Of a stretch of DNA of 64,000 nucleotides, positions 46,896 through 47,231 are shown piece by piece; the first letter of the stretch is position 1; each line of letters starts with the position of its first letter. Made by a program: the position numbers and the translations under genes. The notes beneath the pieces were generated by a model. That model had not been told where the DNA came from. It saw only the letters and a program-made list of their open reading frames with translations, and did no database searches. Location of the stretch: positions 6,953 through 70,952 of the forward strand of contig JACOYC010000009.1 of NCBI GenBank assembly GCA_016182015.1, in the 5' to 3' direction. Source of the DNA: Nanobdellati archaeon (GTDB lineage: Archaea; Nanobdellota; Nanobdellia; UBA10117).

Positions 46896-47231
46896 GGCCG
46901 CCGCCGAGATTTCCTTGCGATGCCCACACCTTTGTGCGATTGAAAATCGCACGCGTCTCTTTTGGGGTGGGGCGGGAGACCTTTTCTCCGCAACCAGAGA
47001 AAAATCCTTCGGGATTTTTCTTGGCCAAGCCGAATTTCATTCGGCTCTGGAGAGAAAAGGGCTTCGCAATCGGACTCGGGCCTAGAGCTTTCTGATACCT
47101 TACAAAATCGTTAAGGCGCTGAGCGCAGCGAATGCGCCTCGCCTTCTTTGGCGGTTTCGTAGAGCACCTTTCTTCGCGAAGAAAGGGGCTGTACCCACAG
47201 GCTCCAATCATACCACTAGACCACGGCGGCC
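46896..47231 (-). tRNA. tRNA-His(GUG) with encoded G-1, interrupted by long introns (anticodon loop, possibly variable region, and T-arm)
   Basis: The minus strand reads G(-1)-GCCGCCG-TG-GTCT-AGTGGTA-TGAT-T-GGAGC-CTGTGG[~104 nt]A-GCTCT-AGGC-CCGAG-T...[~165 nt]...-CTCGG-CGGCGGC-C(73). G-1 lies opposite C73, as expected for tRNA-His. The T-loop/intron junction is not resolvable by eye (TCCGA..AT). The gene sits 25 nt upstream of the hisS start. Confidence 0.55.

Follow-up and report, generated by a model that had tools for sequence, protein, structure and literature searches.

The DNA analysed here, hereafter the window, is a 64,000-nt stretch of contig JACOYC010000009.1 (assembly GCA_016182015.1; positions 6,953 to 70,952 of the forward strand). 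Its minus strand carries a tRNA-His(GUG) gene that reads as three exons separated by two long introns and that is followed, on the same strand, by hisS, the gene for histidyl-tRNA synthetase (HisRS). A first-pass annotation had placed a tRNA-His(GUG) with very long introns at 46896-47231, and the sequences quoted in it were found exactly there, on the minus strand (47231..46896). The assembly comprises 761 kb in 31 contigs and is 88% complete, and the closest HisRS genes belong to metagenome-assembled genomes labelled Nanobdellati, Woesearchaeota, Pacearchaeota or Nanoarchaeota; the host is a tiny groundwater archaeon of the DPANN group. Together, the introns (105 + 159 nt) make up 79% of the 336-nt gene (Table 1). 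The insert after position 37, estimated at ~104 nt in the first-pass annotation, measures 105 nt; the very long insert proposed for the T arm is also real, but its size is 159 nt rather than ~165 nt, the two T-stem strands lying 166 nt apart.

Table 1. Features of the tRNA-His locus and of related genes, given as positions in the window.
Feature	Position	Strand	Description
tRNA-His exon 1	47231-47195	minus	37 nt, G-1 to G37; acceptor 5' strand, D arm, anticodon stem 5' strand, loop CUGUGG
Intron 1	47194-47090	minus	105 nt; at the canonical 37/38 site; one of the introns with the shared core
Intron 1, P0/P1 hairpin	47159..47194	minus	GUACAGC-CCUUUCUU-CGCG-AAGAAAGG-U-GCUCUAC; minimum-free-energy and centroid fold
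Intron 1, purine tract AAAGAA	47144..47149	minus	parallel complement of the P1 pyrimidine tract UUUCUU (47184-47179); mirror of the P1 3' strand
tRNA-His exon 2	47089-47069	minus	21 nt, A38 to U59; A38, anticodon stem 3' strand GCUCU, variable AGGC, T stem 5' strand CCGAG, T-loop UCCGAU (54-59, C55)
Intron 2	47068-46910	minus	159 nt; T-loop position 59/60; core architecture of intron 1 plus nested cassette
Intron 2, nested cassette in P1 loop	46994..47050	minus	57 nt, two hairpins (hp): CCAGAG-hp-CUUGGCCAAG-hp-CUCUGG
Intron 2, P1 3' strand GAGAAAA	46988-46982	minus
Intron 2, purine tract AAAAGAG	46957..46963	minus	parallel complement of the P1 tract UUUUCUC (47058-47052)
tRNA-His exon 3	46909-46896	minus	14 nt; U60, T stem 3' strand CUCGG, acceptor 3' strand CGGCGGC, C73
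Probable hisS TATA box	46888-46881	minus	TTTTTATA; ~23 nt upstream of the conserved ATG; same arrangement in L002
hisS	45663..46859	minus	histidyl-tRNA synthetase; Pfam tRNA-synt_His 2.1e-47
EndA gene	3..827	minus	sole tRNA-splicing endonuclease gene of the genome; single alpha-type subunit; open reading frame runs off the window start

ARAGORN detected no tRNA in the unspliced 64-kb window. When both introns were excised in silico, it accepted the spliced sequence as a cloverleaf and called a 71-nt tRNA-His(gtg). With two deletions of the same lengths placed at random, a tRNA was called in 80 of 1000 trials, and all 20 of the 80 calls that were inspected had both deletions within a few nucleotides of the proposed sites. 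Because the program still accepted boundaries shifted by several bases, it was discarded as a judge of the exact splice sites, which rest instead on bulge-helix-bulge (BHB) geometry and on the T-loops of orthologues. Searches against Rfam 15 returned no match in the window at gathering score and only noise over the locus at E<=10; none of the known families, ribozymes and C/D RNAs included, therefore accounts for the introns. A search of the same genome revealed no second tRNA-His-like sequence.

The three-exon structure is shared by two related loci: L001, from the same genus (HisRS 93% identical), and L002, from another genus of the same family (HisRS 86%). Both have introns at the same two positions and exons identical to those of the window at 70 of 72 nucleotides; exon 1 agrees at 36/37 positions in L001 and at 35/37 in L002, and exon 3 is identical in both. 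A further locus, L015, has tRNA-His 48 nt upstream of hisS with a single 42-nt A/U-rich intron at 59/60, and in six other relatives (L003, L005, L006, L009, L010 and L011) an intronless tRNA-His lies 142-858 nt upstream of hisS on the same strand. The G-1 opposite C73 recognized in the first-pass annotation is encoded (G at 47231, C at 46896), as it is in L001, L002 and L015, and C73 is followed by an encoded CC at 46895-46894.

Archaeal splice sites lie in a BHB motif, in which a 4-bp helix separates two 3-nt bulges that hold the cuts, or in a relaxed hBH or HBh' form of it, and the first two anticodon bases sit in the helix (PMC4090602). This definition places each cut two bases 3' of the helix strand. 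Both sites of the tRNA-His gene show the motif in strict or relaxed form. At 37/38, the 5-bp anticodon stem (h) is followed by the central helix (H) CUGU/UCAG, with 3 bp and a U.U, flanked by the bulges GG↓G and AA↓A (the arrow marks the cut) and by a 3-bp inner helix (h') UAC/GUA; in L002, the intron strand of H is ACAG and all 4 bp form. At 59/60, the 5-bp T stem serves as h, the helix UCCG/AGGA has 3 bp and a G.A, and the bulge AA↓U abuts the T stem, giving a relaxed hBH. The same stem and bulge occur in L001 and L002 with a complete 4-bp helix UCCG/CGGA (h' is off strict register in L001 and falls in Ns in L002), and in L015 with the 4-bp helix UUCG/CGAA and a weak h' in which 3/6 positions pair. 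Position 55 thus covaries with its intron partner, being C55-G in the clade of the window versus U55-A in L015, which supports both the BHB helix and the reality of C55. The genome also encodes the splicing endonuclease and the RNA ligase, EndA and RtcB.

The placement of the second intron determines the T-loop. A by-eye parse had given UCCGAAU, with the intron at 58/59; BHB geometry and the orthologues place it at 59/60 and yield UCCGAUU, a one-base slide of the intron 2 boundary giving the identical spliced product. We consider a 58/59 site improbable. ARAGORN does accept boundaries shifted by a few nucleotides, and the motif of this genome has a relaxed inner side, but in each of the five introns compared no base separates the T stem from the 3-nt bulge AA↓U (AC↓U in that of G001, a genome of the same genus), and a cut two bases past the 4-bp helix gives L015 the T-loop UUCGAUU, which is that of four intronless orthologues. 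UCCGAUU differs from this sequence only at position 55; of the canonical U54-U55-C56-R57-A58, it keeps the other four positions. The non-canonical residue 55 suspected earlier is C55 (window position 47073), present also in L001 and L002.

U55, as pseudouridine 55, is nearly universal in tRNA. The sole tRNA-His detected here is unable to carry this modification, and its C55 co-occurs with a long T-loop intron, pairing with an intron G in the BHB helix. This tRNA offers a test of how essential a nearly universal residue is.

We read the locus, with a probability of roughly 0.88, as the sole functional tRNA-His(GUG) gene of this DPANN archaeon, with two protein-spliced BHB introns at 37/38 and 59/60. 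Several observations weigh against this. To find C55 in place of U55 in a functional tRNA is unusual; neither BHB motif is perfect (U.U at 37/38 and G.A at 59/60), and in intron 2 the register of the inner helix h' is off by one base. In the D stem, U13.U22 is a mismatch and positions 10 and 25 pair as G10.U25. At -27 from the tRNA 5' end no clear TATA box was found, and with an assembly that is 88% complete a second tRNA-His may exist. C55, the imperfect helices and the incomplete assembly would also be compatible with a decaying tRNA-His pseudogene full of mobile elements, the working tRNA-His lying in the unassembled 12% of the genome. We regard such a pseudogene as very improbable: the three-exon structure, with 70/72 identical exons, is kept in two other genomes of two genera; the exon-intron change at position 55 is compensatory; the acceptor stem shows a wobble change (C3-G70 to U3.G70); the ancestral position upstream of hisS is retained; and a second tRNA-His-like sequence was found neither in this genome nor in the 92%-complete genome that holds L002.

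The first-pass annotation had also raised the possibility that the anticodon-side insert is two introns, making three in total, since GCUCUA occurs twice (47165-47160 and 47088-47083). In that parse, a 28-29-nt hairpin intron would follow position 37, the first GCUCU would be the 3' strand of the anticodon stem, and a ~76-nt GCUCUA-bounded intron would follow position 43/44; the mature sequence would be the same save that position 38 would be U, not A. However, the first GCUCUA(C) forms the 3' strand of a P1 extension, pairing with the intron's own 5' end GUACAGC, and this P0/P1 hairpin stretch recurs, GCUCUA included, in introns of other tRNA genes with differing anticodon stems (tRNA-Asn, Cys, Glu and Gln). 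Moreover, L002 has GGCUCCUGG instead of the first GCUCUA and yet the same exon 2, and the central BHB helix (UCAG, or ACAG in L002, then AA↓A) is present at the second site only. That parse, with three introns in the gene, can hardly be sustained, and we retain a single 105-nt intron in which the first GCUCUA belongs to the intron hairpin. That the overlapping 138-aa open reading frame (46861..47277, minus strand) is a real protein gene, with the tRNA likeness secondary, can be dismissed, as the first-pass annotation had supposed: the frame is open both here and in L001, with a 57-nt intron-length difference that preserves it, but no Pfam family matches it, it overlaps the hisS start, its product is unrelated to that of L001 across intron 2 whereas the tRNA exons are nearly identical at every nucleotide, and conservation follows exons and introns rather than codons.

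The two introns of the tRNA-His gene are built on a common plan. Each begins with the P0/P1 hairpin, whose 5' strand is pyrimidine and whose 3' strand is purine; a linker that pairs past the second hairpin (helix P3) and a purine tract follow, then the second hairpin and the P3 3' strand, and finally a short tail with the intron's share of the BHB motif. Shuffled sequences fold far less stably than either intron (z = -3.06 for intron 1 and -5.47 for intron 2). In a crude test, the closing helix P3 gave a weak average signal (6.0 bp versus 5.4 bp for shuffled linkers); clear compensatory partners occur in individual copies (GAAACC/GGUUUC, GGCAUC/GAUGUC and AGUUGCC/GGCAAUU). Intron cores were compared by anchored scripts, with no covariance model, because MAFFT alignments slipped in the low-complexity tracts.

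Near-identical introns occur in tRNA genes of differing identity and at differing positions. Over its first 51 nt, intron 1 shares 94% identity with introns of tRNA-Glu and tRNA-Cys, and intron 2 (query positions 221-329) matches the T-loop intron of the G001 tRNA-Asp(GUC) at 88% identity. The family has at least 20 copies in this genome and was found in 11 of 61 related genomes (8 of 42 genera), with none beyond the order. On these comparisons, the introns are best described as members of a lineage-restricted, mobile and spreading family, apparently undescribed, that occupies most tRNA genes of the genome. Because the homologous G001 tRNA-Asp intron has an empty site, UUUGCG, where the cassette would be, intron 2 is best interpreted as an intron of the 102-nt class that later received the nested 57-nt cassette, copies of which are present at many other places in the genome.

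The two introns differ in how they compare with those of the relatives. Intron 1 is identical to that of L001 (1465-1569) at 104 of 105 positions, including the 3' half, a part not found in other intron copies, versus 88.8% identity for hisS overall and 76% at its third codon positions (P <= 5e-5). Given this excess, intron 1 would be either constrained along its whole length or recently exchanged, and is not to be taken for neutral filler. In L002, another variant of the family occupies the intron 1 site. Intron 2 measures 159 nt in the window, 102 nt in L001 and ~99 nt in L002 and differs in content across all three genomes, being unalignable or differing by a 57-nt indel, and the intron ends of the window are unlike those common to L001 and L002. 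The locus provides a clean comparative series of intron gain, replacement and enlargement, from intronless genes through a 42-nt T-loop intron to two long introns and the same intron with or without a nested cassette. The route by which archaeal tRNA introns arrive is still an open question (bioRxiv 10.64898/2026.10.13.758758).

Copies of the core and of the cassette also lie elsewhere. One core copy, at G000 C29:4616-4836 (GUACAGCCCCC ... UUUUUAC), is outside any tRNA gene and within a perfect 25-nt direct repeat, AGCTTTAAAAGTTCTTTTACTATTT; the repeat resembles a target duplication, which hints at DNA-level insertion. A further member lies at ~41978-42215 on the minus strand of the window (G000 C15, minus-strand position 35305), with P1 UUUCUUUCUU and mirror tract AAAGAAAGAA. 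In leuS (41993-45202, plus strand), a 114-nt in-frame insertion (38 codons) at 44766-44879, not in the L001 orthologue, holds a family member of the intron 2 cassette, likewise with two hairpins: CCAGAG-hp-CUUGGCCAAG-hp-CUCUGG. This insertion would be either translated as an insert of leucyl-tRNA synthetase or removed from the mRNA.

A scan of IMG/VR with the 14-mer ACAGCCCCTTTCTT gave 110 matches, none with the hairpin; these are due to chance and lend no support to viral carriage of the element. A Y1 (IS200/IS605-type) transposase, sought as the mobilizing enzyme, is absent. The 761-kb genome has two reverse transcriptase genes, at C17:4699-5310 (minus strand) and C26:5949-6566 (plus strand). 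Each lies near an imperfect repeat in which the mismatches coincide with adenines in one of the copies. Such template and variable repeats are the mark of diversity-generating retroelements, to which both enzymes appear to belong, and the two genes lend no specific support to retro-insertion of the introns.

Two known cases invite comparison with these introns. The tRNA-Trp intron of Haloferax volcanii is ~105 nt long and encodes a box C/D guide RNA. Like intron 1, it is a BHB intron of ~100 nt at 37/38 whose sequence is conserved beyond the needs of splicing; unlike it, intron 1 has no C/D or other Rfam match, and its core is common to many tRNA genes. The other case is that of the transposed tRNA introns in Thermoproteales (Fujishima et al. 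2010, summarised in PMC4090602): as here, very similar introns occupy canonical and non-canonical positions in tRNAs of differing identity, which implies spread after speciation. The present family differs in its DPANN host, in its common unit, a folded core of ~75-100 nt with a mirror-repeat purine tract, and in having copies outside tRNA genes between direct repeats and a related cassette in the protein-coding leuS.

The purine tract of each intron mirrors the purine strand of its P1 hairpin (Table 1). Among 148 asymmetric pyrimidine/purine hairpins of this genome and of fetched relatives, 44 have an exact mirror tract 4-40 nt downstream, versus 2 with an exact direct repeat and none with a mirror tract upstream; the rule is obeyed by 16 tract variants, including those of both tRNA-His introns. 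Copying by a polymerase can yield direct or inverted repeats, but not mirror repeats. The mirror rule may therefore reflect selection on a parallel-strand structure.

We know of no natural purine-motif triplex inside a tRNA intron. The order of strands in both introns (pyrimidine strand, loop, purine strand, linker and mirror purine strand) is the same as in the purine-motif (R*R-Y, reverse-Hoogsteen) triplex, or H-DNA, in which the third strand is antiparallel to the purine strand of the duplex (PMC7583470). The intron mirror tract, as a third strand, would run in just this orientation. What the introns show is the sequence signature of such a triplex. As a tentative interpretation, which we consider unlikely, the intron core might be a maintained intramolecular purine-motif triple helix, formed in the intron RNA or in a mobile element present as single-stranded DNA, which would land in tRNA genes and now and then in spacers or coding genes. 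Evidence is divided on whether purine-motif triplexes form with RNA strands (Semerad and Maher 1994, as cited in PMC7583470), and because RNA-strand triplexes are disputed, a single-stranded DNA context would be at least as likely as RNA and would fit the published triplex chemistry better. If true, a new class of archaeal mobile intron would be built around a natural, evolutionarily maintained R*R-Y triplex, and the mirror-tract rule makes it a testable candidate.

Introns of this kind extend well beyond tRNA-His. Without intron removal, 4-5 tRNAs were detectable in the whole genome, and ARAGORN found further tRNAs when anticodon-loop introns were allowed, with introns of 101-213 nt that have a common core; almost the whole tRNA complement appears to be affected. 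The EndA of this genome matches PF01974 (1e-27) and PF02778 (1.2e-10), and a low-complexity N-terminal extension of ~100 aa precedes its usual N-terminal and catalytic domains. In EndAs of DPANN archaea, an insertion called L3 has been linked to a broad range of substrates. One RtcB ligase is encoded (PF01139, 4.7e-171), and the genome contains a candidate RNase P RNA (38 bits, E = 6e-10). Alpha4-type EndAs of DPANN archaea go with increased disruption of tRNA genes, and the incomplete predicted tRNA sets of some DPANN genomes have been read as undetected disrupted genes (PMC5829648). With 4-5 tRNAs found in a genome that is 88% complete, the tRNA-His gene and most other tRNA genes of this archaeon would be present but hidden from standard tools; 'missing tRNAs' in DPANN genomes should therefore not be taken as host dependence. 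The gene resembles the multi-intron tRNA genes of Thermoproteales, Nanoarchaeota, ARMAN-Micrarchaeota and other DPANN archaea in its EndA-type BHB introns at 37/38 and 59/60 (PMC4090602, PMC3239211, PMC5829648), in the relaxed hBH at the non-canonical site, in being missed by standard tRNA finders, and in belonging to a DPANN lineage with a single alpha-type EndA. It differs from them in that its introns are long (105 and 159 nt) and highly structured, with a core common to many tRNA genes and a nested cassette, and in that almost the whole tRNA complement seems affected.

From this inventory, we infer how the tRNA might be made. The 336-nt precursor would be transcribed and each intron would fold alone into its P0/P1 hairpin, closing helix P3, purine tract and second hairpin, bringing the intron ends together. 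The exons would then fold into the cloverleaf, with a BHB or relaxed hBH at every exon-intron junction. The single alpha-type EndA would cut within each bulge, two nucleotides beyond the 4-bp central helix on its 3' side; RtcB would join the exons and probably circularize the introns; and RNase P would leave the encoded G-1 paired with C73. The product, a 72-nt tRNA with the T-loop UCCGAUU, would be charged by the HisRS of the next gene. The splicing itself, the circularization of the introns and the retention of G-1 are predicted from sequence.

The hisS gene lies next to the tRNA and on the same strand, as first described, but the reported distance of 25 nt becomes 24 nt to the GTG (46871) of the open reading frame call and 36 nt to the ATG (46859) aligned with orthologues. 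The N-terminus MPIETVKGF aligns with that of L001, and this ATG is probably the start. The usual distance from TATA box to start in archaea is ~23 nt. Because TTTTTATA lies at this distance from the ATG, the hisS mRNA is predicted to be leaderless; the T run of TTTTTATA may also act as the terminator of the tRNA. In L001, ~1.3 kb with another open reading frame separates tRNA-His from hisS. Given this separation and the probable TATA box of hisS, co-transcription with the tRNA would be unnecessary, and hisS is probably transcribed independently from its own TATA box. Among related DPANN loci with enough upstream DNA, tRNA-His followed by hisS on the same strand was found in 10 of 13, from several families, and this conserved pairing may have a regulatory or expression reason.

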